Source of the DNA: Streptosporangiaceae bacterium
GTDB taxonomy: Bacteria > Actinomycetota > Actinomycetes > Streptosporangiales > Streptosporangiaceae
Reading direction: 5' to 3'
Assembly: GCA_035532295.1 (NCBI GenBank)
Contig: DATKRH010000242.1
Coordinates: 2,295 to 66,294 of the forward strand
Length of the DNA: 64,000 nucleotides
Below the pieces are notes generated by a model. That model ran no database searches. It was not told the DNA's origin and saw nothing but the letters and a program-made list of their open reading frames with translations. The translations under genes and the position numbers were made by a program. Shown piece after piece: positions 36,634 to 56,696 of this stretch (positions are counted from its first letter, which is position 1; the number at the start of each line of letters is the position of its first letter).

Positions 36634-36671
36634 GTCACCTCCGTGTCAGCCGAACTACCGTGTCCGCCGAA

Positions 36672-37436
36672 CTACAAGGGTGTCACATACGCACCGCTGA
36701 TACCGCCGTCCACCAGGAACGACGATGCCGTCATGAACGAGGAGTCGTCGCTGGCCAGGAACGCGACGGCGGCCGCGATCTCCTCGGGCTCGCCGAACCG
36801 GCCCATCGGCACGTGCACGAGGCGCCGGGCCGCCCGCTCGGGGTCGGAGGCGAATAGCTCGCGCAGCAGCGGCGTGCTGACCGGTCCCGGGCACAGCGCG
36901 TTCACCCGGATGCCCTCGCGCGCGAACTGCACGCCGAGCTCCCGGCTCATCGCCAGCACCCCGCCCTTGGAGGCGGTGTAGGAGATCTGCGAGGTCGCGG
37001 CGCCCAGCACGGCGACGAACGAGGCGGTGTTGATGATCGATCCCTTGCCGGCGCGCCGCATGTGCGGGATGACGTACTTGCAGCACAGGTAGACCGAGGT
37101 GAGGTTGACCTCCTGGACCCGGCGCCACGCGTCCAGGCCGGTGGTCAGGATGGAGTCATCCTCGGGCGGCGAGATGCCCGCGTTGTTGAACGCGATGTCG
37201 ATCCGGCCCAGCCGCTGCGCCACCTCGTCGAACAGCCCGCGGACCTGCTCCTCGCTGGCCACGTCGGCCGCCAGGAACAGGCCGCCAACTTCGTCCGCCG
37301 CGGCCTGCCCCGCGGCCTCGTCGATGTCGACGGCGACCACCCGGGCGCCCTCGGCGGCCAGCCGCCGCACGCTCGCGAGCCCGATGCCGCTACCCGCGCC
37401 GGTAACCACGGCGACCCGATCCTGCAGGCGCTCCAT
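36672..37436 (-). CDS. SDR-family oxidoreductase
   Basis: VTGAGSGIG cofactor motif, NNAG and YTASKGG catalytic motif. Confidence 0.9.
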   Translation of the reverse strand: MERLQDRVAVVTGAGSGIGLASVRRLAAEGARVVAVDIDEAAGQAAADEVGGLFLAADVASEEQVRGLFDEVAQRLGRIDIAFNNAGISPPEDDSILTTGLDAWRRVQEVNLTSVYLCCKYVIPHMRRAGKGSIINTASFVAVLGAATSQISYTASKGGVLAMSRELGVQFAREGIRVNALCPGPVSTPLLRELFASDPERAARRLVHVPMGRFGEPEEIAAAVAFLASDDSSFMTASSFLVDGGISGAYVTPL

Positions 37437-37463
37437 CAGCTAGCCCTTCTACTCGTCGGTGCT

Positions 37464-37493
37464 TCAGACATCGGTGCGTCAGACATCGGTCGA
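37464..37493 (-). repeat. 15-bp tandem duplication that includes the aldehyde dehydrogenase stop codon
   Basis: On the coding strand: ACCGATGTCTGA CGC ACCGATGTCTGA AGC ACCGACGAGTAG. These are three degenerate units, each ending in an in-frame stop. Confidence 0.85.
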
Positions 37494-38852: not shown

Positions 38853-38933
38853 GACTGCTCTCCCGCTCGTCCCGCTCGTCCCGCTCATCCCGCACATCAG
38901 TTTCCCGCCCGGCGCAGCCGGACACCCGGCGCG

Positions 38934-40325: not shown

Positions 40326-40386
40326 CCGGCTCCGATCGTGTCGATATCCTGGTACTGGCGTTATTCATTCCCGGCGTGGACAGGGC

Positions 40387-41922
40387 TCAGGCCGACAACT
40401 CCCGCTCGATCGCCGCCAGCTCGTCCGGCGAACCCTGGACCCGCGGGCCGGTGAACCACTTCCGGGCCGAGACGAGCCAGTAGATGCCGGCGAAGCCGAC
40501 CACTACGGCGACGGCGATCACGGCGTAGTTGAACGTGGACCAGGTGATCGGGCCGACCTGCGGCAGCATGAACAGGATCGTGATGATGACGACCCAGGTC
40601 ACCGCGATGATCCCGATCGGCTTGCTCCACCGGCCCAGGTGCCAGGGGCCGCGCTCGAAGCTGTCGCCCTGGCGCAGGCGCAGGAAGGTCGGCAGCACGT
40701 AGGCGATGTACAGGCCGATGACGGCGATGGACGTGACCGCCGCGTAAGCGGTGTAGTTCCAGAGGTAGGGCAGGCCAAGGATGAGGGCGCCGACGGCGGC
40801 CAGCCAGATCGCGTTCGTGGGCGTCCGGGTGCGCTTGTTCACCCGGTGCCAGAACGCGGAGCCCGGCAGGGCGCCGTCCCGCGAGAACGCGTAGATCATC
40901 CGCGAGTTGGCGGTCACCGAGGACATGCCGCAGAAGAGCTGAGCGCCGATCGCGATGAGCAGCAGCAGCTTGCCCACGGCCGACCCGGCGGCGTCGATGA
41001 AGATCTGGGCCGGCGGCACTCCCGTCGCGGACAGCCGCTCGGGCTCGTAGTGCTGGATCGCGAAGGTGATCCCGATCAGCAGGATCCAGCCGGCGAACAG
41101 CGACACCACGATCGAGCTCACGATGCCGCGGGGGCCGCTGCGGGCCGCGTCGTGGGTTTCCTCGGTCATGTGCGCGGAAGCGTCGTAGCCGGTGAAGGTG
41201 TACTGCGCCAGCAGCAGCCCGATCAGCACGATGTAGATCGTGCCGATGTGCAGTCCGGTGTCGTTGACGAAGTGCCCGAAGACGAAGCTCGCCGACTGGT
41301 GGTGGGTCGGCTTGAAGGCCAGTACCCCGACGATGATGAGCACGCCGAGGATGTGCCACCAGACGCTGATGTCGTTCAGCAGCGCGACCAGCCTGATCCC
41401 GAACTGGTTCAGCAGGCCGTGCACGAGCAGGACGATGGCATAGATCAGGACGGTCACCCAGTGCGCCGTGCTCCAGCCCCACTCCAGGGTGCCGAAGGCG
41501 TTGATGAAGAACGCCGCGCCGAAGTCGATGCCCGCGGTCACCGCCACCTGGCCGAGGAAGTTGAACCAGCCCGTGAACCAGGACCAGGCGGGCCCGTTGC
41601 GGCGAGCCAGTTTCGCCGACCAGTAGTACAGGCCGCCGGCGGTCGGGAAGCTGGAGCAGACCTCCGCCATGGCCAGGCCGACGAACAGGGTCATGATGCC
41701 GACGAACGGCCAGCCCCAGACGATGACAGCCGGCCCGCCGGTACCCATGCCGTACCCGTACAGCGTCAGGCAGCCGGACAGGATCGAGATGATCGTGAAC
41801 GAGACGGCGAAGTTCGAGAAGCCCGACATCCGCCGTCGCAGTTCCTGCGCGTAGCCGAGCCTGTGCAGGGTCTCCTCGTCGCTGCTCAGCGGCGCGGATG
41901 ATGCGTGCTCATTGACCGCCAC
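40387..41922 (-). CDS. APC-family amino acid/amine permease
   Basis: About 12 TM segments and LRRRMSGFSNFAVSFTIISIL start region. GTG 41922 is preceded by AAGGAGAG; the ORF-track start at 42042 is probably too long. Confidence 0.88.
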   Translation of the reverse strand: MAVNEHASSAPLSSDEETLHRLGYAQELRRRMSGFSNFAVSFTIISILSGCLTLYGYGMGTGGPAVIVWGWPFVGIMTLFVGLAMAEVCSSFPTAGGLYYWSAKLARRNGPAWSWFTGWFNFLGQVAVTAGIDFGAAFFINAFGTLEWGWSTAHWVTVLIYAIVLLVHGLLNQFGIRLVALLNDISVWWHILGVLIIVGVLAFKPTHHQSASFVFGHFVNDTGLHIGTIYIVLIGLLLAQYTFTGYDASAHMTEETHDAARSGPRGIVSSIVVSLFAGWILLIGITFAIQHYEPERLSATGVPPAQIFIDAAGSAVGKLLLLIAIGAQLFCGMSSVTANSRMIYAFSRDGALPGSAFWHRVNKRTRTPTNAIWLAAVGALILGLPYLWNYTAYAAVTSIAVIGLYIAYVLPTFLRLRQGDSFERGPWHLGRWSKPIGIIAVTWVVIITILFMLPQVGPITWSTFNYAVIAVAVVVGFAGIYWLVSARKWFTGPRVQGSPDELAAIERELSA

Positions 41923-42208
41923 GGCTTGCTCTCCTTGGGTCCGAACTACGGTTGGAGTACCTGCTGCGGGCCGCCCCCGCCGCACGCCTCCGTCGCGCGA
42001 CCCCGCACCCCCGCACTGGGGGCTGGCGAGTGAGAAATCCAATGGTCTAATATCAGACCAATGATGGCTAGACCTGAGGCAATGTCAATAGTCCGGACGA
42101 AATTTGTCCGCGACGCCGCATAGTTCCCGAGCCGCGGGCGGGTCTGACCCGCGCGCCAGGCCGCCTACAGTCGGCCCAGCAGTGCCAGCGCAGCGGAGGG
42201 CGGTAACG

Positions 42209-42931
42209 GTGGGCGCCGGGGTCGATCTGGGCGCAGTACTGCGGCCCGTGCGGCAAGGCAACGCGTTCGAGGAGACCGTCGAGCGGCTGCTGACCGTGAT
42301 CAAACTCGGCATGATCGCGCCCGGCGAGCGGTTCCCGGCCGAGCGTGAGCTGGCGGTCCAGCTCGGGATCAGCCGGCTGACGCTGCGCGAGGCACTCCGG
42401 GAACTGCAGGAGGCGGGCTACGTCAGCTCCCGTCGCGGCCGGTTCGGCGGGACGTTCGTCACCTACACGCCGCCCGCCCCGGACCGGGACGAGTTCCGCC
42501 GCCTGGCTCGCGAGGACGGGGCCAAGCTGGCCGATGCGCTGACCTTCCGGCTCGCCGTCGAGAACGGCGCCGCCGAGATCCTGGCCGGCCTGCCGGCCGA
42601 CGAACAGGCGCGCGAGACCCTGCTGGCCCGGCTCGCCGAGGTCAACGCCGCCGGCCCGGCCGATTACCGCCGCCTGGACACGCTTTTCCATCTCGCCATC
42701 GCCGAGCTGACCGGGTCCAGCCTGCTGCTGGCCGCGTGCACCGACGCGCGGATGCGGCTGGTCGGCCTCCTCGATGCCATCCCCATGCTGCAGCGCAACA
42801 TCGATCACAGCAACGTCCAGCACGCCGCCATGGTGACCGCGATCCTGGCCGGAGACGCGCAGCAGGCGCGCGCGGCGGTCACCGAGCACCTGTCGGGGAC
42901 GGCATCTCTCCTGCGCGGCTTCTTGGGCTGA
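42209..42931 (+). CDS. FadR/GntR-family transcriptional regulator
   Basis: Winged HTH ERELAVQLGISRLTLREALRELQEAGYV plus an FCD-type helical C-terminal domain. GTG 42209 with GGAGGG upstream. Divergent from the permease operon. Confidence 0.85.
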   Translation: MGAGVDLGAVLRPVRQGNAFEETVERLLTVIKLGMIAPGERFPAERELAVQLGISRLTLREALRELQEAGYVSSRRGRFGGTFVTYTPPAPDRDEFRRLAREDGAKLADALTFRLAVENGAAEILAGLPADEQARETLLARLAEVNAAGPADYRRLDTLFHLAIAELTGSSLLLAACTDARMRLVGLLDAIPMLQRNIDHSNVQHAAMVTAILAGDAQQARAAVTEHLSGTASLLRGFLG

Positions 42932-44164: not shown

Positions 44165-45814
44165 ATGGCGGTGCGAGCCGACGCAGAAGATCTTGATCTC
44201 TGGCAGGGGAACTGGCCTCTGCCGTATGCGGCCTGGAGGTCTCGGTTGATGAGCGACCAAGGGGAGCCGATGATTTTCGATCCGCTCTATTATTCCGACC
44301 GGCTGACTATTGTGAATCCAGTCGGGGATGTCGGGCTCGTCACCCTGTGGAATCCGTTGGACGCTGCTATGCGCGTGCTGGGGCGCATTTCGCCGGACAT
44401 CCTCGATCCTGGAAAGTCCCGGATCGCCGTCGTGTCAAATCTTTACGGCGATGGCATGTATCAGATGCTGTGTAACTTGCTGTACAACCCGCAGATCCGG
44501 CACCTGATCGCGGTCGGGGAAGACATGGACCTGCCCACAGTCACGGAAATTGGTGCCTTCCTTGAAACCGGCTTGGAAGAGACCGTAATGCTCGGTACTA
44601 CGGTGTGCCGGATTCCCGGCACCACCCGGTTGTTCCCGTCTCTCCGGGACTTCGACGCTCATCGTCTACAGCGCCAGCTCACCTTCTGTTACCTCGGGAA
44701 GCTGGCTGGCGGCGAGGCGGCGCGGAGGCTGCCGGATTACCTCGCCGCGCTCACGCGATACCGGCCGCCGGAGGCCGGGGAGCGGCTGCGGGTCGACATT
44801 CCGCCGGATGACTATACATACCGGCCTTCGGATGTCATGGGTCACCAAGTGGTGCGCCGACGGCCTCTTGACTGCTGGGAGGAACTGGTAACCAGGACGG
44901 TCAGGTTCGGGCATCCCGTCAGCCTGAGCAGCGGCCCCCGGCGGGAACTGCTTAACACTCAGGTGGTCATAACTGACCCGGCGGAGGATGCCGCCGACGT
45001 GCTCGACAAGTACGGTTTTTCCCTGGAGCGTCTTCACGATTATCAGCGGAAGATGCTGGACGGGGAAGTCCCGCCGGGAATCTCGTACACCTACGGAAAC
45101 CGGCTGCGCGGGTACTTCCGGAGAGACGGGAAGAAGATCGACACCCTGAGCTCCGCTGTCCGGACGCTGCAGGCAGACCCAGAGAGTCGGCACGCTTACA
45201 TCTCGCTATGGGACAACGCCGCAGACCTCCCGGGAGACCGGGAACGCGGCTCCTCCGTGCCGTGCCTGGTGACACTGTTCTTCCGGCGCTCGCAAGACCG
45301 GCTGACTCTGACTGCTACGTACCGCTCCCATAATCTGCTCACCGCCTGGCTGCAGAATGTGTACGGGCTGATGGCCATCCAGCAGTGGGTATGCGACCGC
45401 ACTCACATGGCACCTGGTCCGATCACGGTGATCAGTCACTCGTTGGGCATCAACCCGCGCGATCCTCGGTATGAGTTCGCCCGGGGCATCGCCGAGCGGT
45501 GGACGCGGGACGAGGATGTCAACCGCAGCACCGGCAAGCATTCCCTGCGCGAGGACCCGAACGGCTACTTTGTCGTTACCGTCAATAAGGACCCTCCGGA
45601 AATTGTGGCTGAGCACCGATACGGAGGACTGCTCGTGAAGCGCTACCGCGGCGACACGGCTGCCAAGATCGAGCGGGAGGTGATCGGTGACATGGCGGTC
45701 AGCCTGGTCTCGCACGCGCTCTGGCTTGGCCGTGAGCTGATGACCAAGGCGGAGATGCTGCCGCGGCAGCCTGATCGCCGTCGAGCTCCGGCTGAGACCG
45801 ACGAGGGCTCGTGA
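44165..45814 (+). CDS. Three-module fusion protein: MtrA-like N-terminal module, thymidylate synthase/dCMP hydroxymethylase-like core, DUF4346-like C-terminal module
   Basis: N-terminal module: VGDVGLVTLWNP ... VVSNLYGDGMYQMLCNLLYNPQIRHLIAVGEDMD, an MtrA-like pattern. Core: DPESRHAYISLWDNAADL, VPCLVTLFF (nucleophile-type Cys, codon 45263-45265), YRSHNLLTAWLQNVYGL and VISHSLGI line up by eye with TS motifs SRR..WNP, PCH, QRS.D...G.PFN and H.Y. C-terminal module: DPNGYFVVTV...HRYGG...GDTAAKIEREVI, DUF4346-like. Alternative start ATG 44249 has GGAGG 9 nt upstream. The ORF-track start at 43946 overlaps the previous gene. Confidence 0.78.
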   Translation: MAVRADAEDLDLWQGNWPLPYAAWRSRLMSDQGEPMIFDPLYYSDRLTIVNPVGDVGLVTLWNPLDAAMRVLGRISPDILDPGKSRIAVVSNLYGDGMYQMLCNLLYNPQIRHLIAVGEDMDLPTVTEIGAFLETGLEETVMLGTTVCRIPGTTRLFPSLRDFDAHRLQRQLTFCYLGKLAGGEAARRLPDYLAALTRYRPPEAGERLRVDIPPDDYTYRPSDVMGHQVVRRRPLDCWEELVTRTVRFGHPVSLSSGPRRELLNTQVVITDPAEDAADVLDKYGFSLERLHDYQRKMLDGEVPPGISYTYGNRLRGYFRRDGKKIDTLSSAVRTLQADPESRHAYISLWDNAADLPGDRERGSSVPCLVTLFFRRSQDRLTLTATYRSHNLLTAWLQNVYGLMAIQQWVCDRTHMAPGPITVISHSLGINPRDPRYEFARGIAERWTRDEDVNRSTGKHSLREDPNGYFVVTVNKDPPEIVAEHRYGGLLVKRYRGDTAAKIEREVIGDMAVSLVSHALWLGRELMTKAEMLPRQPDRRRAPAETDEGS

Positions 45815-46536
45815 GCGCACCGCTGGTTGTCCTTGACATCGGGTCGTCGCTGGTCGCCGGGCCTGCCCGCGGGCCAGCCTCGCGGATCGCCGAGACCGCT
45901 GGTCTGGATGTTGCACATAAGCGCGCCCTGCACAACCTGCTGATGACGACGGACTACGCCAATTCATCGGACGCTTGCGCTGCTGTACGCGCGCGGCTCG
46001 GGCTAGGCGGCCTGGTGGTCGAGTCAGCCGTGGCCGATATCTGGGACGCGCAGGAGAACGAAGCGAGGTTGATTCCCGGAGCATTCGAGGCTCTGGGGGC
46101 CTTCGTCGCGCAGGGCTGCCGGCTGGCGCTGCTCTCGAACATCTGGACTCCCTATTTCCGGTCAGTCCGCCGGCTGCTGGGCGAGTTCTTCGACGCGCAC
46201 ATCCCGGCTGAGCTCCAGCTGCTGTCCTGCCGCGAAGGGCTGGCCAAGCCGGCGCCAGCGCTGTTCAGCCGGGTTCTGGAGCGGGCCGCCGTCGATCCTT
46301 CGCAAACCCTGATGGTCGGAGACTCCTACGGCAAGGACATCGAACCAGCCATCGCGTGCGGGATGCGCACGCTTTGGCTGTTGCACGACCCAGCACGAGA
46401 GGCACGCGCGCTGGTGCAGGTTCTCAACGGCGCTGCCGCCGCGCCAACCCGGGCGCTATGTTCGCTAGCAGACATCGATATTGCGGGTGCCTGGCTACTC
46501 CAGGTGCTCGCGGCCACTACTACGGCAGGCGATTGA
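45811..46536 (+). CDS. HAD-superfamily hydrolase (subfamily IA-like) with atypical motif I
   Basis: Motif I VVLDIGSSL (the second Asp of DxD is replaced by Gly), motif II LALLSNIW, motif III GLAKPAP and motif IV MVGDSYGKDIEPAIACGM. The GTG start overlaps the upstream stop (GTGA). Confidence 0.8.
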   Translation: MSAPLVVLDIGSSLVAGPARGPASRIAETAGLDVAHKRALHNLLMTTDYANSSDACAAVRARLGLGGLVVESAVADIWDAQENEARLIPGAFEALGAFVAQGCRLALLSNIWTPYFRSVRRLLGEFFDAHIPAELQLLSCREGLAKPAPALFSRVLERAAVDPSQTLMVGDSYGKDIEPAIACGMRTLWLLHDPAREARALVQVLNGAAAAPTRALCSLADIDIAGAWLLQVLAATTTAGD

Positions 46537-46552: not shown

Positions 46553-47182
46553 ATGCGGATTCTTTCAGTCGAGACAATTACGGCCGACCAGTTGCTGTCC
46601 ACGATCCGGCAGACGCGGCTCCGCGGGTTCGGCCGCGCGCAGCCTTACCTCGATGCCTCACTGGAGGTCGTCCACGCGCTTGATGCCGACACTCTGGCCC
46701 CAGCGCAGAACTACGTTCTGACGCCGGGTGTTGCCAAGGTCCTTGACCTTCGGGACGCCTTGCTGCCTGAGGGGGTAGACATCTTCGCCCTCAATGGTGG
46801 GGTGTACGTGACGACGTCGGATGACCCCGGCGAGCGGATCCCGGTCCTCCCGCCTATCGTCGAGGAGTCCCGCGAACCTGACGGCCGGACCGTCCTGCTG
46901 ATCAACGACGGCATGCACCGGATTTTTGCCGCGCGCTCGCTCGGACTGCCGATCTCGATCGTGGTGGCGCGCAGCGTGCCCGCTGAGTATCCCTACTACG
47001 CCTTCGCGCTGGACGGCGGCTGGTCGCGGGTCACGCCGCTGGCGGAACTGCCGGACGGGTACCAGAAGAAAGAATACCGGCAGCCCGCCAATTATAAGTC
47101 ACTCTTCCGCGAATTTAATGATCTGTTCCCAGGGGTCCAGAAAGAACGGAAACAGTCCAATCCGAGTCACCTGGCGATGTAG
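46553..47182 (+). CDS. ParB/Srx-fold (ParB N-terminal domain-like) protein
   Basis: LLINDGMHRIFAARSLG (DGxHR motif, 46907-46921). ATG 46553 follows GGGGAG. Paralogous to the C-terminus of the next gene. Confidence 0.75.
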   Translation: MRILSVETITADQLLSTIRQTRLRGFGRAQPYLDASLEVVHALDADTLAPAQNYVLTPGVAKVLDLRDALLPEGVDIFALNGGVYVTTSDDPGERIPVLPPIVEESREPDGRTVLLINDGMHRIFAARSLGLPISIVVARSVPAEYPYYAFALDGGWSRVTPLAELPDGYQKKEYRQPANYKSLFREFNDLFPGVQKERKQSNPSHLAM

Positions 47183-47228: not shown

Positions 47229-50200
47229 ATGCACCTTGTCACGGATGATTTCCTGGCTAGCCTTGAGCGCGACGGTGACAGCCCGGCCGCCGGGGACGGA
47301 AGCAGCGCGGGTATCACCGATATCTGGATAGATCGTAAGGGGCCCTGGCGTTTCGACATCGAAGTGATCTCGGACCTGCGTATCGACGGCGCGCTACCGG
47401 ATCCGGATGCTGGCTACCCCGTGGCAGCGGCGCGGGCACTGCGTGCCGCGTTTGTCGACCGATACAAGCACCTGCGCGGCGCTTTCAACGTGACGCGCAC
47501 CGCCGACCTGATGGTGAACTGCGGAGACCTGATCGCGGGGCGCAAGGACGCCACCGAAGCCGAGTCGCGCCGGGTCACGTCCGCCTATGCGGATATCTGC
47601 CTGCCCGCCTTCCGCGAACTGCGGGAGGCGGATCGCGAGAAGCGCACGCCAGACCCCGACCGGCTCTTCCCCGACCTGCTGAGTATCCCTGGCAATGAGG
47701 ACGTCTACGGCGGTGGAGGGCCGGTGCGCGGGCCGTGGGCCCCGGCACCGTCCCGGCAGGGGGAGGCTGAGCCGCAGCCTAATCCTTACTATTCGCATTT
47801 CGTCGGTGAACTGGCGGCTAATTCAGACCCGGAACAGAAGCGGCCAGAGTCGCATCCCGTAGCCGCAGTATTCCGGATCATGCCGCGCAGCGACCCCGGA
47901 GCGGCAGGCGGCCTGGAGAACGCACCGATTGCCTACATTGCGGTGATCGGGTTCGACTCCAACAGCGTGCAGTATGAGCATGATTTGGCGGCCGACTACG
48001 GCCAGGTCAGCGAGGAACAGTTGCAGTGGTCACGCGACCTGGTCAGCAGGCTGCGCGATGTGGCGGCCCGCAGCACGCCGCTCTATGTGATCGCCGTGAC
48101 CCACCACAACCTGCTGCCGGTCGAGGACCGGGTCGTGTACCCCCCGGGCGGGGAGGACGACGAGCGCGTGACGAGTTTTCAGAATCTGCTCAGGGGAACC
48201 GCCGGAGTCTGTGACCCGATGTCTCGCCTGTGCGTGACCAGGAACTTCCTCGCGGAGAATGCGCGCGGCACAACCTCGAACGCCTCGGGATTCCTGAGCC
48301 ACTGCCTGCAGTTGCGCGCCTCCCTGGTGCTGCATGGCAACATGCACCAGCGGGCGGTCACGACGCTGGTGAGCACCCCGCTGCTAGCAGGCCGTCCTGC
48401 CACGGAGGTGTCGGTGCTGGCCGCGCCCGCCTTTGCCGCAGGCCGGCCGTCATCGGGAATGGCGCGCATCAGCCTGGATCTGTGGAAGGGCCAGGCAGAG
48501 ATCGCGTTCCACTATGACACCGCACTGGACGGCGGCTCGTCCGACGGGCCAATCCAGGTCATCAGGCCGCTGATCTCGGCCTCCCGGGTAAGCAGCGCGG
48601 AGCGCCGGCTTTACGCGAAGGTCTGCGACCTGGTAGCCGACGCCCTGAAGAGGGACGCGCCGAAGCGCAGTCCCCAGGTGCTGGCCTTCGCCGCCCATGT
48701 CGCCGAGGTCTGGGAGAGCGACGGCTACACCCCGGTCTGCATGCCGGACGGCACGCTCCCGCATCTCGGAGTCGCCACCCGGCAGAACCGCTACTACCTT
48801 CTCCTCCTGCTCCGCGAGACCGAAGGCGGTAACTACGAGATGCTGCTCAGTCGGCACAACCCGCTCCGGCCCAGCGAAGTAGCGGAGTGGGATACCTTGC
48901 TGATGCCTGCCTTCCGGAACGTCAGGGACCTGATGGAGCGATTGCATCTCGATGTCGTCCGGCAGGTGGTGACTCAGGCCGAGGACATGAGACGGGCCTC
49001 TAGCGCCAGGACGTTCGACGATGCGGTGGAACGGATCCAGGAAGGTGGCGGCAACCTGGCGGACGACATCTGGATCGATAAGATCCGAGAACTGGATACC
49101 ACTCGCACGCAGAAGATCTCGCCGGCTACGGGGGAGATCACCGACTATGAATACCGCATGGTCGTGCTGACACCATTCGTGCGCGATCGCCAGTCGGTGG
49201 ACCTGGACTCGGCGGTCGGCAAGCAAAGGAAGCAGCTCGAAGCGGAACTTACCGTGGTCGACTGGCTGACGGAGCTGCCAAGCGTGCAGCTGCGCGGCGC
49301 GCCCCTCAGCGGTCGGCGGACGATTCCGCTTGAGGCGATCATGACTGGCGGCGCTGGCTTGCGCTGGGAGCCAGCCGCCGACCCGGACGACCCGGACGAC
49401 ATCAGTGAGGACGAGGCCCGGCGCCGTACGGTGCTGCCGCCTGGCGCGGTCTGGTTCCCGCTGCCGGAGATCGATGACCGCGAGGGACCGTGGACGCTGG
49501 CTCCGTCGCTCCTGGCGCGCAACGCGGACGTCATGCGATGGGTCGAGCAGCGGCTGATCGCGCGGCGGACGGCAGATGGCCACTTTCCCCCGCACATCGT
49601 GCTAGGGCAGATGAAGGAGACCACCGGTTACCACCTGGCCGAGGGCCCCTTCCCCTACCTCCAGCCGCTCGGCGCCGACGGCAGCGACGCGGGGCTCGCT
49701 ACGTCCACGATGGAGGCCATGAACCGCATCGAGTACACCGGCGACTTCGACCTGCGCAAGCAGCGCCCGTATCAAGGGCTTGACGTCCGGCGGGTCGCGC
49801 TGGTCCGTCGCACGATCCAGGTGCGAAGCGGGCGTCGGCGTGACGTGATTCTGGTTTTCGACGCGACACCACGAGACGGGTCCCGGATAGACCTCTCGCT
49901 CTTCAGGACCTGCCCATCCGATACCGGGAACGGGCTGCTGGGAGTACTGCGCCCCGCGCAGCGGTACGTCCTGGAGGCGGGCCTGGAGCGGGCGGGGTGG
50001 GTCAATGACTTCCTCGCCCAGCACTGCGGTGATGACCCGTGGGGATTCCTGCGGGCGACGTTCGGCGGGGCGGGCGACCCGGTGGCGCTGACCCCCCCCG
50101 TAATCGAGCAGGTACACCCAGATGACTGGGACTCCGACGACGACAGCATGCTTGAGTTCGTTGTGTGTGATGGTAACCACCGCATTATCCGTAAGGTCTG

Positions 50201-50498
50201 GAATGGTGGCGATGTCGCTCCCGCCATTGCCGTTGTCAGCCCGCCGCGTCAGCCGTACTACGCGCGGCCGTTCTCCCCCTATGAGTGGGACATCACCGCG
50301 GGTAACCGCCTCACCGTCTCGCCGGACCCGCGCTTCCGGTACGCGCCCCGGCCGGTTGACCCTGACAAGCTCGAGATCACGCCCGAAGCCCGGGAGGAGC
50401 TGAGGTCGAAACCCGAGGAGTCGCTCTTCCGGCGGTATTACCGGGACATCAGCACCGGTTTCGGCCCGGTGGGCGGGCAGGGTGGCCGCTATGCGTGA
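47229..50498 (+). CDS. Large multidomain protein: degenerate calcineurin-like metallophosphoesterase N-terminus, about 500 aa of unassigned middle, ParB/Srx-like C-terminus
   Basis: MPE-like motif series ISDLRID, NCGDLIAG, IPGNEDVYG, AVTHHNLLP and LVLHGNMHQ. C-terminal EFVVCDGNHRIIRKV (50169-50183). AAGGAGAG precedes ATG 47229. Confidence 0.8.
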   Translation: MHLVTDDFLASLERDGDSPAAGDGSSAGITDIWIDRKGPWRFDIEVISDLRIDGALPDPDAGYPVAAARALRAAFVDRYKHLRGAFNVTRTADLMVNCGDLIAGRKDATEAESRRVTSAYADICLPAFRELREADREKRTPDPDRLFPDLLSIPGNEDVYGGGGPVRGPWAPAPSRQGEAEPQPNPYYSHFVGELAANSDPEQKRPESHPVAAVFRIMPRSDPGAAGGLENAPIAYIAVIGFDSNSVQYEHDLAADYGQVSEEQLQWSRDLVSRLRDVAARSTPLYVIAVTHHNLLPVEDRVVYPPGGEDDERVTSFQNLLRGTAGVCDPMSRLCVTRNFLAENARGTTSNASGFLSHCLQLRASLVLHGNMHQRAVTTLVSTPLLAGRPATEVSVLAAPAFAAGRPSSGMARISLDLWKGQAEIAFHYDTALDGGSSDGPIQVIRPLISASRVSSAERRLYAKVCDLVADALKRDAPKRSPQVLAFAAHVAEVWESDGYTPVCMPDGTLPHLGVATRQNRYYLLLLLRETEGGNYEMLLSRHNPLRPSEVAEWDTLLMPAFRNVRDLMERLHLDVVRQVVTQAEDMRRASSARTFDDAVERIQEGGGNLADDIWIDKIRELDTTRTQKISPATGEITDYEYRMVVLTPFVRDRQSVDLDSAVGKQRKQLEAELTVVDWLTELPSVQLRGAPLSGRRTIPLEAIMTGGAGLRWEPAADPDDPDDISEDEARRRTVLPPGAVWFPLPEIDDREGPWTLAPSLLARNADVMRWVEQRLIARRTADGHFPPHIVLGQMKETTGYHLAEGPFPYLQPLGADGSDAGLATSTMEAMNRIEYTGDFDLRKQRPYQGLDVRRVALVRRTIQVRSGRRRDVILVFDATPRDGSRIDLSLFRTCPSDTGNGLLGVLRPAQRYVLEAGLERAGWVNDFLAQHCGDDPWGFLRATFGGAGDPVALTPPVIEQVHPDDWDSDDDSMLEFVVCDGNHRIIRKVWNGGDVAPAIAVVSPPRQPYYARPFSPYEWDITAGNRLTVSPDPRFRYAPRPVDPDKLEITPEAREELRSKPEESLFRRYYRDISTGFGPVGGQGGRYA

Positions 50499-50578: not shown

Positions 50579-53500
50579 TTATGTGGGGTCGGCAATCCGC
50601 AGAGCCACGACGCCCTGGGTGGCGCCGACCACCAGACGGCCCGGAGGTTCCTCCTGCCAGAACTCCTGTGGCATCGCCACCTTGAGGACTTCGCAGTCGA
50701 ACCGAATGGTGGCTCGTTCTTCCCAGCTGCGCTCCGCCGTCCAGGACGACAGCGTGACGGTCTCGCCGGCGGCGACGGCTACCCACGTGCAATCGATGCC
50801 CTCGTACTCGGGATAACCGCGTGGCTGAGCGGTAATGGCATTCACTTCTCCCGAGCCGTGGGGCACCTCACCTACGGATTCACGGGTCTGCAGGTTCCAT
50901 GCCAGGACCGTGCCCGCGTCGTCGCCGGAGATCACCACGGGCGTCCGGGCTAGGGATGTTGCGGCCAGGGCTCGAACGGCGCTGCTATGCCCGGTGAAGG
51001 GTGCTCCGATCCGCGCCCCGGTCTGCAGAAGCGAGACGGCGATGGTCTTATCGGTGCTGCCGGACACGATGACGGGCTGTGAATCGCCGGCATCTAGGCC
51101 GTCGGCTATCCCGACAGCGCGGATGCCTTCGGAGTGAAGCTTCCTGGGCGCCCCGATAGCGACCATCTTGGTGAGGTCCCAGACAGCCACGTGACCGTCG
51201 CCGCTGGCTGAGACAGCGACCGGCCCAATGCCAGGCAGCGTGGCGACGGCGAGCGCTCGAACCCAGTCCCCGTGTACACCCAGCCGGCCCAGAAGTCGTC
51301 CACTTGCGAGATCCCACACCTTCAGCCGATGATCAACGCCACCAGAGACGATGATCGGGCGGTCTGCCGCGGCAACAGCCAGCGCGCGGACGCCCTGGTG
51401 GTGGGCCGCCAGTATGCGCTCCTCCTGCGTCCGGTCCCAGTCCAGGTCTCGGATCTGGATGGTGTCGTCATCGCTGCCGGAGATGACCATTACCGTGTCT
51501 GCCGCGGCATCTTCTTTCTCTGTATAGTCCGCCTCAGGATCTCGCTCCGTAGGTGCGGTGACGGCGAGCGACCGCACCCAGCCACGGTGCACAGTTCGCA
51601 GCGGCGCCTTGCGTTCCAGGTCCCAGACCCGGATGATCGCGTCGCCGCCACTGGAGAAGACCACGGCCCGGCCCTCGGCGGTTCCCACTGTCAGCGTTAG
51701 CGCGCCTCCGGCATGTATCCGAGGGTGAGCCGTGACCTTCGGCGAATACCCGGAGAACTGCGTTCCTGCGGGGAACCTCGTGGTCCCCTCAGCGAACTGG
51801 ACTGTCCCGTCGGCGTGAGCGCTGGCGATCACCACCGAGTCCTGGCCGGGCACGAGGGCTATTGCCCGGACCGCCGAGGCCTGCCTGCACCACTCCTGCG
51901 ACCCGGTGTCCGTTGCCAGATCGCAGACCCGGATCACTCCGTCGTCACCACCTGAGACGACCCAGGAGGGATGTGACGGCATGACAGCCAGGGCAGTGAC
52001 GGTCTCATGCCCGCTCGCGAGGGTCCGCACCTGGTCTCCCGAAGCAGGATCCCAGATGTGCAGGACACCATCTGCGCCAGCAGAGACTATCAGCGGATAA
52101 GGCGCGGCTGGATCGAGCTCGATCTCCTGCAAGGCCCGGACCGTGCCCTGATGCCCCTGGTAACGCGCTGTCTCCTCACCGGTCGCCGGGTCCCAGACCA
52201 CTACGATTCCGTTGAGGTAGGCAGAGATGACCCGCGTTGCCGCATCGTTCGGGATGACCAGGAGCGCTGTTACCGAGGCCGGGCGCTTTGCGATCCTGAA
52301 GGGCTCCCGTTCCTCCGCGCCCGTTGCGGCATTCCAGACTCGCACTGTGGTATCGGCGCCGCCGGAGAGGATGCACGAGTGCCCGCCGATGTCCGTTACC
52401 GCGAGAGCGCTCACATACTGGTGATGGCGTCTCAGGGGGCGCCCCATCATGGCCCCGGTGTCCGGATCCCACCGCCGTATCGTCGCATCGGTACTGCCGG
52501 AGATCAGCCGGTTCCGACCGTCGATCTGGGTGAATAGCAGCGACCGGATCTTCTGCTGGTGCCCCGTGAATGCCTCGTTGGCTGCTCCTGCTGCGGTGAG
52601 GTCCCAGATCCTGGGTATCCCGTCATCGCCGCCTGAGATGACGATGGCGCGGTTGCCGGCGTCGGTCACGGCCAGGGAGCGAATTTTCGCGTCGTGTCCG
52701 GTGAAGGGCGCGCCGATCGGAGTGCCGTTCGCGGCGTCCCAGACCCGGGCGGTCTTGTCGGCGCCGGCGGAGACGATGACGGGCCGGCCGTTCACCTCGG
52801 CGACCGCTAGCGCCCAGATCCCGTAGGTATGCACGGCCAGGGCGTCGCGCCGGGCGTCCTGGATCGCCGGATCCCAGACGTAAATGGCGCCATCATCGCC
52901 GGCGGAGACGATCATGGGCCGCTCGCCGAAAGTGGCGGTCGCAAGCGCCCGCACTGCCCGCGTTCCCCAGTGGTGCGTCAGAACGCGGGGGATGGGAGGA
53001 ACCAGGCTCCACACATGAACGTCGCCGCTAATACGCGCTGTGACGACATGGGTGGCGTCGCCCAGCCGGATCACGGTGATCGCGGTGACCTGGGTTCTGT
53101 ACCTGTCGTATGCTTTTCTGACTTCTTGGCCGGATTGCGGATCCCATAGCCGGACCGTGCCGTGGGCATCGCCAGTAACGACGGTTGTACCGCGGCGCAG
53201 GTGTGCTACTGCCACCCCTCGCACCGGGGCCTTGTGCGCGGTGAACGTCGTCATGGCCGTATCGTCGTTGGCGGCTAGGTTCCAGACCCGGACCGCGTAG
53301 TCTTCTCCGGCGGATACTACGATCGGCGTGCCGTCCTCAAGACTGCCTGCGGCCAGCCCTAGAATGCCGCCGCTGTGCGCGTGGGAGATGGCGCGGATCA
53401 GGACGCCCCGCAGCACATCCCAGATCCGGATCCCGCCATCACCGCCTGCCGTTACCACGACCGCCCGATCGTCGGCCAGTGTCGCGGTCGCCACGGTCTG

Positions 53501-55795
53501 GACCGCGTCGGTGTAGCCGGTGAGCCGGACGTGCGGCTGCTGCTGACGCCAGGTTGCCCAGGTGGCCTGCCACGGGGCCTGGCCTGGTCCAGTTCCGAGG
53601 CCGATGCGGCTCGCCAGAGCGTCCGCTCCCCGGCATCGGGCTGCAAGGGATAGCTGCGCGAGCAGCGCATGCACGTCGTCTGGGCTCCGTCCGCCCCCTG
53701 ATCCGGCCGTGGCCACCTCAGGACGCGCGGTGAGTGCAGCAAGCGCGGAGCTGTAGGCGTCTGCGACGGCCCGGTGTCGCGGCTCAGTCAGGCTGCCCAG
53801 GACGGCACGCAGCTCGGCGTCTCGGCCATGCGCCAGGAAGCCCGGGTCCAGCACCAGTTCGTCGATGTCGTCAAGGAATCCGCCGGCGACCGCATGCTCA
53901 AGGAGGTGATCACGCAGGTAGGACGATGCCCGTGCCCAGTTGCGGGTCGCGCCTGGGCGCTGCCGGACCTGGTCAAGCAACGTCCGGGTAATGGCCTGCT
54001 CATCGGCGGCCAGGTCACGCTTGCCCCGCGGAGGCCGGTCGGCCGCTCTTAAGTAGGTGCTCAGCGACTGGTGGTATAGGTGGAAGAGCGGTCGATCCGG
54101 CTCGGCGGACGGACTCGCTACCACATAGGAGCTCGCATGCTTGCGGATCCAGTCGAGGTCGGCATTCCCGTACGTCGTAGCGCCACTCGGCCGCAGCGCG
54201 TTGGCTAGCGGCAGCCATACCTCCGCCCACGGGATGCCGTTACCCCGGCCGTAGGCAAGCGGCAGCAGCAGGTCAATGGCGCGCTGGGCCTCGCTGGCCC
54301 GCAGCCGTGCCTGGAGTTCCGCCTGCATAGCCGGGCCAGCGTCCTTCGGAAGGTCACCCTTCCACCGCTCGCTGCGAGGGTCCGGCAGTTCCCTGATCCG
54401 TGCCTGCGCCCTGGCGATCGCTTCGCCAATGTAAAACGAGGATCCGGCGATGTCGACGATGGCGTCCACAGCAGCCCGGACCACGGCGTCGTCTGCGTCC
54501 CGCCACGGCGATGAGTAGTCAGGCACATCTGCGCTCAGAGGATCCCGACCACGCAGCACCGTCTCCACCCATCCGTGAAGCGCAACGGGATCCTGATACT
54601 CCCCGTCGAGATCAATGACCCTTTCATCCTGGGCTGCTGGTCCAAAACCCGCCAGCGGCATGACCTGCCCGCGGCCGCCGAGCAAGAAGCGAACAGGCGA
54701 TTCCGGGTCAGTGGTGAGTGGCTTCAGCAGTATCTGGCCGAGATCATCGAGGTCCTGGGACGACCCCGCTTCACCATCCTCCTGCATGGACTCCTCATCG
54801 AGCGCGTCGAGCAAGACAGTCATCTGCTTGTGCCGCGCCCGCAGGTAACCGACGAGTGAGGCAACCCCATCCGCCAGACTCTGAGCACTTCTGATGCTCG
54901 CGATTTCGCTCGTCGACATGCCCGCCGCTTCTGCCAGGCGGACGAGAATAGTGCGTGGGACCATGTTGCGCACGTACAGGGCGATGTCGATGGATACTGC
55001 AGGCGGAAGGCAGTCTTCGGGAAGCCAAACCTTGACCCAGTGGCGGTGCCCCGAGGCCAGATGGGCTATCAGGCCGAGCAGGGCGGTCTTGCCGGATCCA
55101 GGGCCGCTCGTGACGAAGCACGACTCGCGGTCTCCTGCGTTGGCGAGCCACACAGCGATCTTGCGCAGCGCACCATGCCGACCCTCGAACGTGCTCAGCC
55201 CTCGGCTGAACTCAGTCGCGATCGCCTGCTGCCCGGGCAGTTGCTCCCTTGGCTGGCCGCGACGAGCCTCCTCCTCCCTGGTCGGAAGAGGCGGCCTTGA
55301 ACCTAGCGGGCGCGGCGGGTTATACGGCTGCTCGAATATATGTCGCAGGATTGAGTCGATGCCTTCCTGCGTGAAGCTCTCAACTCTAAAGCGCGTCCGG
55401 CCCGCGGGGGTCAGCCAGTCAGGCAGATCATCGGCCGAGCGTCCGGGGAGCACGACCGGCATGATTTGCTTGTTTACGGCAGCATCCCCAAGATTAAAAA
55501 TCTTGTTCCTAAGTAGTCGTGCTTCATAGCGCACCCCTCGCCCGACTTCAGACGCATCCTCTGAGTCGGCGTAGATCCTATAGCCTGGGGAGGCGATGAC
55601 CAAAATGTGATCGGCATCGACTGCTTTGCTCATCCACATCGGCCACTCTTGTGCCTCAGCGTGCTCATCCCAGAATGCGTCGACGCCGTTATCGCGCAGG
55701 ACATCGCAGAGTCTCCCCACGGCCGCGATGTGATCTGGGCTCTCCCGTGCGAACGAGATAAACGCCCGTGGCGGCAACTTCTCCCCATCAGCCAT
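50579..55795 (-). CDS. NLR-like STAND protein: TIR/SEFIR-like N-terminus, NACHT-type P-loop NTPase, WD40 repeat array
   Basis: N-terminus: PRAFISFARESPDHIAAVGRLCDVLRDNGVDAFWDEH...ADHILVIASPGY. Walker A: CFVTSGPGSGKTALLG. Walker B: MTVLLDALDE. The C-terminal 1000 aa or so consist of WD-type repeats (H..V.alav....g...vvSgg.DgtvRvWD). Confidence 0.9.
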   Translation of the reverse strand: MADGEKLPPRAFISFARESPDHIAAVGRLCDVLRDNGVDAFWDEHAEAQEWPMWMSKAVDADHILVIASPGYRIYADSEDASEVGRGVRYEARLLRNKIFNLGDAAVNKQIMPVVLPGRSADDLPDWLTPAGRTRFRVESFTQEGIDSILRHIFEQPYNPPRPLGSRPPLPTREEEARRGQPREQLPGQQAIATEFSRGLSTFEGRHGALRKIAVWLANAGDRESCFVTSGPGSGKTALLGLIAHLASGHRHWVKVWLPEDCLPPAVSIDIALYVRNMVPRTILVRLAEAAGMSTSEIASIRSAQSLADGVASLVGYLRARHKQMTVLLDALDEESMQEDGEAGSSQDLDDLGQILLKPLTTDPESPVRFLLGGRGQVMPLAGFGPAAQDERVIDLDGEYQDPVALHGWVETVLRGRDPLSADVPDYSSPWRDADDAVVRAAVDAIVDIAGSSFYIGEAIARAQARIRELPDPRSERWKGDLPKDAGPAMQAELQARLRASEAQRAIDLLLPLAYGRGNGIPWAEVWLPLANALRPSGATTYGNADLDWIRKHASSYVVASPSAEPDRPLFHLYHQSLSTYLRAADRPPRGKRDLAADEQAITRTLLDQVRQRPGATRNWARASSYLRDHLLEHAVAGGFLDDIDELVLDPGFLAHGRDAELRAVLGSLTEPRHRAVADAYSSALAALTARPEVATAGSGGGRSPDDVHALLAQLSLAARCRGADALASRIGLGTGPGQAPWQATWATWRQQQPHVRLTGYTDAVQTVATATLADDRAVVVTAGGDGGIRIWDVLRGVLIRAISHAHSGGILGLAAGSLEDGTPIVVSAGEDYAVRVWNLAANDDTAMTTFTAHKAPVRGVAVAHLRRGTTVVTGDAHGTVRLWDPQSGQEVRKAYDRYRTQVTAITVIRLGDATHVVTARISGDVHVWSLVPPIPRVLTHHWGTRAVRALATATFGERPMIVSAGDDGAIYVWDPAIQDARRDALAVHTYGIWALAVAEVNGRPVIVSAGADKTARVWDAANGTPIGAPFTGHDAKIRSLAVTDAGNRAIVISGGDDGIPRIWDLTAAGAANEAFTGHQQKIRSLLFTQIDGRNRLISGSTDATIRRWDPDTGAMMGRPLRRHHQYVSALAVTDIGGHSCILSGGADTTVRVWNAATGAEEREPFRIAKRPASVTALLVIPNDAATRVISAYLNGIVVVWDPATGEETARYQGHQGTVRALQEIELDPAAPYPLIVSAGADGVLHIWDPASGDQVRTLASGHETVTALAVMPSHPSWVVSGGDDGVIRVCDLATDTGSQEWCRQASAVRAIALVPGQDSVVIASAHADGTVQFAEGTTRFPAGTQFSGYSPKVTAHPRIHAGGALTLTVGTAEGRAVVFSSGGDAIIRVWDLERKAPLRTVHRGWVRSLAVTAPTERDPEADYTEKEDAAADTVMVISGSDDDTIQIRDLDWDRTQEERILAAHHQGVRALAVAAADRPIIVSGGVDHRLKVWDLASGRLLGRLGVHGDWVRALAVATLPGIGPVAVSASGDGHVAVWDLTKMVAIGAPRKLHSEGIRAVGIADGLDAGDSQPVIVSGSTDKTIAVSLLQTGARIGAPFTGHSSAVRALAATSLARTPVVISGDDAGTVLAWNLQTRESVGEVPHGSGEVNAITAQPRGYPEYEGIDCTWVAVAAGETVTLSSWTAERSWEERATIRFDCEVLKVAMPQEFWQEEPPGRLVVGATQGVVALRIADPT
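50582..53525 (-). repeat. WD40 repeat array, about 20-21 divergent units (consistent with three 7-bladed propellers)
   Basis: Units counted by eye in the translation. The units are diverged rather than near-identical. One unit carries an acidic insertion (TERDPEADYTEKEDAAAD). Confidence 0.75.
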
Positions 55796-55836: not shown

Positions 55837-56024
55837 TCAGAATAATGGACAAAGACCTTTACAGTCCCTGATGTCCGTGCGGAGGACGCCCTGCGGTTGG
55901 TCCCGGCATGCTCCGCGCCGTCGCCTACCCTGTATCGACGGCCGTCGCCGGAAGCAGGTCGCGGAGTCCATGGAGCGATGTGTATGCTACCCGACCTCAC
56001 GATTGCGCACACAGCGTGAGCGCC

Positions 56025-56696
56025 ATGAAGCTGCGCTTCAGCGGCCGCTGGTCTCGCATGGCGCTGGGACTCCCTGTCGGCGCGGCAATAGGCGCGGCCG
56101 TGTTCTGGGCCGGCCAGCTCCACGGAGCAGGCCTGTACCTGCTGACAGGGGCTACGGCCGGGGCCGTCGCCGGCCTGCTAGTGCACGCCTACAGCGGCAG
56201 TGTCGGGCTGCAGGACGTGACCATCACCATTCCGCAGCTATCGCAGCTGCACTTTATCGTGTCGCCGGATAACCGGCTGGTCGCCTGGCGATTGTTCATC
56301 GAGACTACGACACGGGTATCGACTCAGCCGCTGGTGCCCGACAGCGGCAACCTGCGCGAGGCCCTGACCTCTCTGTACAACCTTTTCCAGGAAGTGCGGA
56401 CCAGCCTAAAGGAGTCCAGGCCCTCCCGGTCAGCGTCGAACGGGCCGACTGTCGAGGAACTCGGCGTCGCGATGCTGAACCTGGAACTGAGGCCGTTCCT
56501 AGCTCGCTGGCACCCGCGGCTAGCCGAGTGGGAGGGCAGCCACCAAGGCGAGCCGGAACGATCATGGGAAGGCAACCTGCAGTGCCGGGCTGAGCTGGCC
56601 GAGTTGCAACAGCGGCTGGGCAGGTACGTTACCGGATTTGCTGCTCTTGCCGGGCTCCAGTCCATCACGGCGTGGCCGCCACCAAACGGAAAATAA
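56025..56696 (+). CDS. Hypothetical membrane protein: two N-terminal TM helices plus a helical soluble domain
   Basis: MKLRFSGRWSR then MALGLPVGAAIGAAVFWAGQL and GLYLLTGATAGAVAGLLVHAY, then about 170 aa of non-repetitive sequence. Start ATG 56025 chosen; alternatives are 55908 and 56058. Confidence 0.55.
   Translation: MKLRFSGRWSRMALGLPVGAAIGAAVFWAGQLHGAGLYLLTGATAGAVAGLLVHAYSGSVGLQDVTITIPQLSQLHFIVSPDNRLVAWRLFIETTTRVSTQPLVPDSGNLREALTSLYNLFQEVRTSLKESRPSRSASNGPTVEELGVAMLNLELRPFLARWHPRLAEWEGSHQGEPERSWEGNLQCRAELAELQQRLGRYVTGFAALAGLQSITAWPPPNGK

Follow-up and report, generated by a model that had tools for sequence, protein, structure and literature searches.

What does a gene annotated as thymidylate synthase (TS) do when its product carries two additional domains, lacks several canonical active-site residues and is encoded in an operon with a HAD-superfamily hydrolase, a metallophosphoesterase and ParB-CE domains? 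This question was raised by a gene in a 64,000-nucleotide stretch of DNA from a Streptosporangiaceae bacterium (contig DATKRH010000242.1; the whole stretch is referred to as the window), which has the high GC content, about 70%, of actinobacterial DNA. A sequence-only reading of the window had described the gene product as a TS-like enzyme flanked by MtrA-like and DUF4346-like modules, probably acting on a uracil-type substrate and unlikely to be a housekeeping ThyA. The analysis presented here indicates that this TS fusion is probably a nucleotide-modifying part of an anti-phage system and not a housekeeping enzyme. The narrower proposal, that it is a pterin-dependent enzyme that alkylates uracil nucleotides at C5 within a conflict system targeting the nucleotide pool, is given about an even chance of being correct.

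A three-domain protein built around a thymidylate synthase fold

The open reading frame lies on the forward strand and ends with the stop codon at 45814. Its start, previously placed at 44165, was moved to the ATG at 44249, which is the most likely start codon because it is preceded by GGAGG 8 nt upstream, because a database protein from a Streptosporangiaceae metagenome-assembled genome (P0001, "thymidylate synthase") has the same 521 aa and is identical to the window product, and because the N-termini of the homologues all start near M-x-F-E-P-L-Y-Y.

The division into an MtrA-like domain, a methanogen-type TS domain and a PterinBD/DUF4346 domain is near certain. Pfam Thymidylat_synt (PF00303) was matched with an E-value of 2.6e-9 and 37.1 bits against a gathering threshold of 24.3, covering positions 91-203 of the 266 in the profile, and the best NCBIfam model was the methanogen-type TS TIGR03283 (E 5e-35, 120.8 bits), which spans aa 236-433 of the 549-aa reading that begins at 44165 and scores under its equivalog cut-off of 174.55. 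Sequence and profile searches of the PDB returned only thymidylate synthases, the CMP hydroxymethylase MilA, and MtrA. An AlphaFold model made with 32 homologues had a mean pLDDT (predicted local distance difference test) of 80 and three compact domains separated by low-confidence linkers; with this model, Foldseek found many structures of ThyA as well as MilA and the phage dCMP hydroxylase AfhB, with a probability of 1.00 and an E-value of about 1e-12. Pfam, NCBIfam, PDB and Foldseek thus agree on the TS fold that had been called by eye, and the conserved nucleophilic cysteine that was expected along with the fold is present as well.

The DUF4346-like C-terminus proposed earlier was recovered by Pfam PterinBD-DUF4346 (PF14251; E 1.1e-14, 55.4 bits against a threshold of 29.6), and among NCBIfam models the same region also matches the C-terminal parts of a 390-aa MtrA model and of the DHPS-like TIGR00284. 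The pterin-binding label of PF14251 is Pfam's own name, and binding by the window protein is a prediction. In distant full-length homologues, Pfam assigns MtrA, TS and DUF4346 together. The family comprises 770 matches among clusters at 90% identity and 1213 among representatives at 50% identity (131 of the latter at E<=1e-30), with full-length matches down to 27% identity, and its members are labelled "thymidylate synthase" or "thymidylate synthase (methanogen type)" in databases. Three homologues of about 790-800 aa (P0017, P0019 and P0152) have a C-terminal extension of ~280 aa that ends in a second copy of DUF4346.

The N-terminal domain had been likened to the soluble fold of MtrA, the corrinoid subunit of methyl-tetrahydromethanopterin:coenzyme M methyltransferase, over ~120 aa. 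Homology to MtrA was upheld by profile comparison, while the length had to be extended to about 180 aa. A family profile of the N-terminal ~185 aa matched MtrA in the PDB (8q3v_A, E 1.7e-5; 5laa, E 3e-3) over ~100 residues that include the common segment G-x-x-x-M-x-x-N-L-x-x-N-P-x-I-R-x-L, and the domain was modelled with a pLDDT of mostly 82-96; in the Pfam search, the MtrA family (PF04208) was not called on the window protein itself. The key elements of MtrA are the cobalt ligand His84, its hydrogen-bond partner Glu54 and the consensus 109-GAIPF-Y/F-xEN (Wagner et al., PMC4915002). When the profile alignment was read against that description, His84 was replaced by Leu95, Glu54 by Tyr66 and the consensus by G-T-x-R-x-F-P, and the archaeal homologue P0302 likewise lacks the MtrA histidine. 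The window protein further differs from MtrA in having neither a membrane anchor nor Mtr partner genes. The MtrA-like domain is therefore predicted not to be a corrinoid protein of the MtrA kind, and cobalamin-dependent methyl transfer through this domain was ruled out because the cobalamin ligands and the motif are all missing. Strongly conserved motifs particular to the domain, N-L-Y-G-D-G and C-N-L-L-x-N-P-Q, point to a role in ligand binding or as an interface.

Two clades with different active sites

Active-site residues were mapped onto the E. coli ThyA sequence, which was checked against PDB alignments for the stretch 91-198. Tyr94, Arg126, Cys146, Arg166, Ser167 and Asn177 of E. coli correspond to Tyr282, Arg314, Cys339, Arg359, Ser360 and Asn370 of the window protein, respectively, whereas Arg127, His147, Asp169 and His207 are replaced by His315, Leu340, Asn362 and Gly400, and Tyr209 is absent. 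The motifs align as had been proposed by eye: SRH takes the position of SRR, PCL within VPCLVTL that of PCH with the nucleophile Cys146, and YRSHN...LQN that of QRS.D...N. The assignment of SHSLGI to the H.Y region fared less well, since the position is the same but neither His207 nor Tyr209 is found there. Compared with the classical ThyA of E. coli and M. tuberculosis, the window protein shares the fold and the six retained residues at about 15-19% identity, but it is changed at His147, Asp169, His207 and Tyr209, has Trp80 in a gap and Trp83 replaced by Met (the folate-binding segment is unaligned here), and carries the extra N- and C-terminal domains.

When 271 family members were aligned by HMM, the residues behind the predicted chemistry proved to be conserved. 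The Cys339 column contains Cys in all aligned sequences but one, which has Ser; Cys339, Tyr282, Arg314 and Arg359 vary little or not at all in ~200 sequences, at identities as low as about 30%, and Ser360 is likewise invariant or nearly so. The uracil-reading Asn370 is Asn in essentially every family member, in line with the uracil-type preference that had been suggested from the LQN motif.

The same alignment separated two clades. Type B, which includes every close homologue of the window protein and accounts for ~200 of the 271 sequences, has an invariant Arg231, a variable position 315, Asn362, Asn370, Gly/Ser/Thr400 and Asp/Asn/Ser402. Type A (~25 sequences, more distant) has Arg-Arg, R-S-x-Asp, Asn and an S-A-H-I-Y-type motif, whose final Tyr could be aligned in 16 of the 25, and lacks Arg231. 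Both types have the same order of three domains, and type A proteins are homologous to the window protein over the full length at 27-35% identity.

The stand-alone TS of Methanobacterium virus PhiF1 (~210 aa) resembles type A. This methanogen-type TS (TIGR03283) shares with the window protein a minimal core of P-C-L, Y-x-Y-G and R-S-x-x...N at 31% identity, but it lacks the two extra domains and keeps the four canonical residues in whose place the window protein has Asn362, Gly400, no Tyr209 and an unfixed Arg127. Comparison with PhiF1 TS and type A indicates that PCL in place of PCH is shared by methanogen-type TS in general, and that the changes from SRR to SRH and from RS.D to RSHN, already singled out in the sequence-only reading, are specific to type B, as is the loss of H.Y.

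In E. coli ThyA, Arg127 from the partner subunit binds the dUMP phosphate, His207 and Tyr209 bind the 3'-OH of the deoxyribose, and Asp169 binds the pterin ring. The losses at these four positions suggest that type B retains the catalytic chemistry with its sugar, phosphate and cofactor contacts rebuilt. Reuse of the TS fold for non-thymidylate chemistry has precedents in MilA (5jnh, CMP hydroxymethylase) and AfhB (9iqu), which superimpose on the window model with a root-mean-square deviation of 3.1-3.8 A; in contrast to the window protein with its uracil-type Asn, both act on cytosine nucleotides, and neither has MtrA-like or DUF4346 domains.

Gene contexts of type A and type B relatives

The two clades were found in different company. 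In the Aenigmatarchaeota protein MFB6089089.1 (type A), MtrA, TS, DUF4346 and thymidylate kinase are joined in one chain; the bacterial type A gene P0288 directly follows tmk among gyrB, recO, era and ybeY; and a third type A member is a stand-alone gene. No ParB-CE gene was present in any of these three contexts. With its canonical residues and its thymidylate kinase partners in housekeeping regions, type A appears to be a true thymidylate synthase of a kind that has seldom been described.

Type B loci were collected by exact-protein look-up (six loci) and from metagenomes (55 loci) and scored by tblastn against reference proteins, and neighbours were counted in the 20 loci whose flanks both extend for 3 kb or more. 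A small ParB-CE gene was the most constant neighbour (19 of 20 loci), followed by genes for HIT (17), a ThyA-like protein (16), a dCMP-deaminase-like protein (16), a nucleotidyltransferase resembling HldE domain II (CTP_transf; 15) and DHFR (14). HAD genes were present in 11 loci, and the ~1000-aa metallophosphoesterase+ParB-CE protein in 10. Fusions of the TS fusion with ParB-CE (P0104) and with HAD (P0150) also occur. A proteobacterial locus from Magnetococcales contains the trio of TS fusion, ParB-CE and metallophosphoesterase-ParB-CE at 40% identity, so that the core module crosses phyla; the type B clade as a whole comprises hundreds of sequences from at least Actinobacteria and Proteobacteria. 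The Magnetococcales trio is followed by a gene for a concentrative nucleoside transporter (Nucleos_tra2; L062, 13681-14928).

The ThyA-like genes that cluster with type B in other genomes (L001 14050-14943, L002 10416-11336 and L006 13367-14275) encode divergent proteins of 297-306 aa that score 177 bits against the NF002497 cut-off of 327. They keep E58, W80, W83, Y94, C146, H147, D169, N177, H207 and Y209; the exceptions are Arg127, which is Thr, and Arg21, which is Lys in two of the three.

These contexts bear on the simplest alternative, namely that type B proteins are bona fide enzymes converting dUMP to dTMP, serving as alternative or back-up TS in a pyrimidine deoxynucleotide salvage cluster in which ParB-CE, HAD and phosphoesterase are salvage nucleotidases. 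The database name says thymidylate synthase, the equivalents of Cys146, Tyr94, Arg126, Arg166, Ser167 and Asn177 are all retained, type A relatives built in the same way are joined to thymidylate kinase or encoded beside it, and genes for a dCMP-deaminase-like protein and DHFR accompany type B at most loci. However, a second TS would be redundant in the 16 of 20 loci that already have a separate, near-canonical ThyA, and type B has given up Asp169, His207, Tyr209 and the fixed Arg127, all of which type A keeps. The window copy moreover is part of a low-GC, foreign island, genes for a deaminase, DHFR and HIT are missing from the whole 64 kb, and the TIGR03283 score of the protein stays under the equivalog cut-off. 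A plain TS is thus considered unlikely. The same evidence sustains the earlier view that this is no housekeeping ThyA: Arg127, Asp169, His207 and Tyr209 are lost in the derived clade of the protein and retained in the sister clade, which is found with thymidylate kinase, and the partners are ParB-CE, HAD and metallophosphoesterase proteins in a low-GC island.

A second alternative is a pyrimidine hydroxymethylase or methylase that contributes to a hypermodified DNA base or a nucleoside secondary metabolite, in the manner of T4 gp42, the SPO1 dUMP hydroxymethylase, MilA or BcmA, with the deaminase, ThyA, DHFR and NTP-hydrolysing partners in the roles of phage nucleotide-precursor enzymes. The nucleotide-precursor set of T4 consists of dCTPase, hydroxymethylase, cd, td and frd, and the extended cluster found elsewhere mirrors it; MilA and phage AfhB are among the best Foldseek matches, and a weak YjjG-like similarity of the HAD protein hints at a non-canonical pyrimidine nucleotide as substrate. 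This reading nevertheless appears quite improbable: the clusters have no conserved gene for a glycosyltransferase, dNMP kinase, DNA-level transferase or polymerase, nor any for antibiotic-type tailoring or export, cytosine chemistry of the gp42 or MilA type is unlikely because the base-reading residue is Asn, and no phage among 50,697 records carries the fusion. The tblastn search of these records returned matches to the TS domain only, at no more than 33% identity and none of full length. A phage or prophage origin of the TS fusion was likewise rejected, as there was no full-length phage match, the partners other than HAD had no PHROG match, and no tRNA genes were found in the window.

The extended type B clusters contain further genes of note. 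A nucleotidyltransferase resembling HldE domain II and a dCMP-deaminase-domain protein with an N-terminal extension of ~140 aa form a conserved pair in 15-16 of the 20 loci (L001 15870-17332 and equivalents), accompanied by a HIT protein; this set could serve the synthesis and turnover of a dinucleotide-type molecule. In eight loci (L006 15900-16811, and L004, L013, L015, L016, L023, L026 and L040), the deaminase gene is followed by a gene of ~300 aa without a family match, which has no homologue in the window.

The operon, the island and the neighbouring STAND protein

Downstream of the TS fusion, the window operon continues with genes for a HAD-superfamily hydrolase, a small ParB-CE protein and a 1089-aa protein that combines a metallophosphoesterase with a second ParB-CE domain (Table 1), an informative neighbourhood that the sequence-only reading had not taken up. 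The start of the HAD gene overlaps the stop codon of the TS fusion by 4 nt, and the other gaps in the operon are short. A scan of 42.8-57.2 kb for promoters and terminators gave five promoter-like sequences against 1.9 +/- 1.5 expected and terminators at chance level, with none of either at the operon boundaries.

The HAD protein is weakly similar to YjjG and pyrimidine 5'-nucleotidases. Its motif I is DxGx[ST] in all 23 homologues (LDIGSSLV in the window) in place of the expected DxDx(T/V), so that the second Asp is replaced by Gly, while motifs II-IV (SN, K, GDSxxxD) are kept. In HAD phosphatases, this Asp+2 of motif I is the general acid/base.

The small ParB-CE protein and the C-terminal ParB-CE domain of the 1089-aa protein share the motifs PAQxY, PxxE, DGxHR and PYYA. 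In the 1089-aa protein, the metallophosphoesterase motifs GD, GNED, HH and GNMH and the ParB/Srx motif C-D-G-N-H-R are conserved. Neither protein had a match in the PDB by sequence search, but a model of the larger one (pLDDT 70) was aligned by Foldseek to purple acid phosphatases, YydD and the 5'-nucleotidase UshA over ~435 residues (E 6e-8 to 5e-3), and there was a weak match to the model of the anti-phage phosphoesterase DS9_1. The middle of the protein (about aa 450-880) gave weak, non-significant matches to Nudix/Ap4A-hydrolase-like folds, and residues 687-772 were modelled with very low confidence.

No homologues of ThyA, DHFR, HIT, deaminase or cytidylyltransferase were found in the 64-kb window by tblastn, and a scan for the thyX-type motif RHR(x7)S returned chance matches only. 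As the Magnetococcales locus similarly has no ThyA, DHFR, HIT, deaminase or nucleotidyltransferase gene, the TS fusion, ParB-CE and the large protein, with or without HAD, appear to be a self-sufficient module.

The operon lies in an island of ~14 kb (~43.0-57.0 kb) with a GC content of 0.63-0.68 and a GC content at third codon positions (GC3) of 0.74-0.82, whereas the flanking DNA has values of 0.70-0.76 and 0.89-0.96, as would be expected of an island acquired horizontally. Convergent with the operon, the island encodes a 1737-aa protein in which TIR_2, SEFIR and AAA_16 matches are followed by WD40 arrays, and whose SEFIR domain was detected by PADLOC as bSEFIR (E 4e-24). No known defence system was recognised beyond this domain. 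Homologous giants with a caspase or another N-terminus abut the TS fusion in L001, L005, L035 and the P0017 locus. The giant of Actinokineospora (L001, 2846-7990) has a caspase (Peptidase_C14) N-terminus, is 34% identical to the window protein over about 1600 aa and lies 10 nt upstream of the TS fusion, and the arrangement at the P0017 locus is similar. The exchange of TIR/SEFIR for caspase on a common STAND-WD40 body is effector swapping, which is typical of conflict systems, and the giant probably belongs to the system.

A proposed nucleotide-targeting conflict system

The evenly balanced proposal stated at the outset can be spelled out as follows. The TS fusion would attack C6 of a uracil nucleotide and move a one-carbon unit from a reduced pterin, which in an actinobacterium would be methylene-tetrahydrofolate, to C5, while the MtrA-like and DUF4346 domains would probably help to bind or deliver the pterin. 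Because the contacts to the sugar 3'-OH, the second phosphate contact and the contacts to the pterin are rebuilt, substrate or product probably differ from those of the plain dUMP to dTMP reaction; the substrate could be a uracil ribonucleotide or a uracil nucleotide in another phosphorylation state, or the reaction could be a hydroxymethylation and not a methylation. The TS fusion would act as a unit with the HAD protein, ParB-CE and the metallophosphoesterase+ParB-CE protein, which are predicted to strip phosphates from (d)NTPs and so to supply or consume its nucleotide, or else to process its product. Thymidylate kinase in type A and ParB-CE in type B are fused at the same end, which points to the product of the TS domain as the nucleotide that ParB-CE would phosphorylate or hydrolyse. 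The net effect would be a pyrimidine nucleotide pool that is drained or chemically poisoned, as the effector arm of an anti-phage or conflict system that the adjacent TIR-STAND-WD40 sensor may gate.

A stronger version holds that type B catalyses a reaction new to the TS fold, for example the addition of a methyl or hydroxymethyl group to C5 of a uracil nucleotide (ribo-, di- or triphosphate) that is passed on by ParB-CE, and that the product is an antimetabolite or signal in an anti-phage system found across phyla. This version is regarded as tentative and somewhat doubtful.

The proposal takes its bearings from known systems in which conflict effectors target nucleotides. "CE" stands for conflict effector, a name that goes back to Nicastro et al. 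(2023) according to the citing passage in PMC12871103. PUA-Calcineurin-CE and HAD deplete dNTPs in E. coli, as was shown by experiment; in this PUA-Cal-HAD system, dNTP is taken to dNDP by HAD and on to dNMP by Calcineurin-CE, and motif I of HAD is DxDx(T/N) with D7 and D9 (PMC12871103). The window locus likewise has a co-operonic ParB-CE protein, a calcineurin-like phosphoesterase and HAD, a patchy distribution on an island and a TIR-STAND neighbour. It differs in that the phosphoesterase is fused to ParB-CE, the HAD motif is DxGx[ST], and none of the operon proteins had a recognisable PUA domain; PUA-Cal-HAD in turn has no component like the TS fusion.

In PUA-Cal-HAD, the PUA domain senses m6-dAMP (PMC12871103), which raises a further alternative: the TS-like domain might be a sensor that binds, and perhaps covalently traps, a phage-derived or abnormal pyrimidine nucleotide and thereby switches on ParB-CE, HAD and phosphoesterase as effectors. 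Such sensor-effector logic is established for the related effector pair (PMC12871103), the TS-fusion gene precedes and is sometimes fused to effector-type domains, and the contacts of its product to cofactor and sugar are eroded in comparison with type A. Yet ~200 sequences show hardly any variation in the nucleophilic Cys, in Tyr94 or in the two phosphate arginines that remain, and the two pterin-associated domains are kept, a pattern expected for catalysis and not for mere binding, which makes a sensor role very unlikely.

Several points weigh against the proposal of a C5-alkylating enzyme in a conflict system. Most type B loci have a full set for making dTMP (a dCMP-deaminase-like protein, a canonical-looking ThyA and DHFR), which also fits a metabolic pathway. 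The HAD protein lacks Asp+2, unlike the HAD of PUA-Cal-HAD, so a simple phosphatase cascade is not assured. A STAND giant is near the TS fusion in only 3-4 of the 20 loci, and since STAND giants are common in actinobacteria, the link to a sensor is possibly coincidental. The roles of Asp169, His207 and Tyr209 are those known from E. coli ThyA, and His207 and Tyr209 were aligned by MAFFT and HMM and not by superposition. Finally, none of the four operon proteins is covered by a PADLOC model, and no biochemical or genetic data were found for any family member.

TS is among the best-understood enzymes, and the known offshoots of its fold have each brought new nucleotide chemistry to light, such as that of hydroxymethylases and of a flavin-dependent hydroxylase. 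If a modified nucleotide is indeed made in an immune system here, a one-carbon-transfer step would be added to the theme of warfare over nucleotide pools, ParB-CE and DUF4346 domains would gain a function, and a TS derivative would be an immune effector. The contrast between types A and B provides ready-made reversion changes, N362D, G400H and N402Y. The label "thymidylate synthase" in many actinobacterial genomes is probably a mis-annotation. I found no literature on the fusion, on DUF4346/PterinBD or on ParB-CE, in a search that lay outside the paper naming ParB-CE (Nicastro et al., 2023), which may already predict the neighbourhood. Pfam models exist for all recognisable parts of the TS fusion; the split into types A and B, the active-site signature, the missing cobalamin ligands and the DxGx[ST] HAD are undescribed as far as can be told.

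Other features of the locus

Coordinates are collected in Table 1. The 226-aa protein encoded upstream of the TS fusion had no match in Pfam, NCBIfam, PADLOC or PHROG; its homologues are 65-75% identical in L007 and 39% identical in L039.

Table 1. Features of the window and of type A loci used for comparison. Positions refer to the window unless a locus is named.
Feature	Position	Strand	Remarks
Upstream gene, 226 aa	43453..44133	+	occasional accessory gene; homologues beside TS fusion in L007 and L039
TS-fusion gene	44249..45814	+	521 aa; MtrA-like, methanogen-type TS and PterinBD/DUF4346 domains; type B clade
MtrA-like Rossmann-type domain	44270..44803	+	aa ~8-185; profile against PDB; without cobalamin ligands
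TS-fold catalytic domain	44843..45514	+	aa ~199-422; TIGR03283, Foldseek, residue map
Codon of predicted nucleophile Cys339	45263..45265	+	translation VPCLVT; equivalent to E. coli Cys146
PterinBD/DUF4346 domain	45551..45760	+	aa ~435-504; Pfam PF14251
HAD-superfamily hydrolase	45811..46536	+	Pfam HAD families; motif I D-I-G-S-S
Small ParB-CE (ParB/Srx-fold) protein	46553..47182	+	209 aa; Pfam PF24392, E 2e-31
Metallophosphoesterase+ParB-CE protein	47229..50498	+	1089 aa; N-terminal calcineurin-like metallophosphoesterase; ParB-CE at aa 906-1021 (Pfam)
TIR/SEFIR-STAND (AAA_16)-WD40 NLR-like protein	50579..55795	-	1737 aa; convergent with operon
262-aa protein	55908..56696	+	divergent from giant gene; inside low-GC island; link unproven
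Type A genes	L063 2825-4807; L067 7212-10514; L065 8001-9488	n/a	fused to thymidylate kinase, beside tmk, or alone

The 262-aa protein at the far end of the island had no family match and no homologue in related loci. The island as a whole is inserted between a GntR-regulated catabolic cluster of the gamma-glutamyl/polyamine type and a sufR-sufBDCSU operon. The catabolic cluster (34331-42931) encodes a glutamine-synthetase-like protein, an aldehyde dehydrogenase, an SDR protein, a Peptidase_C26 protein, an amino-acid permease and a GntR/FCD regulator, and is ordinary housekeeping DNA.

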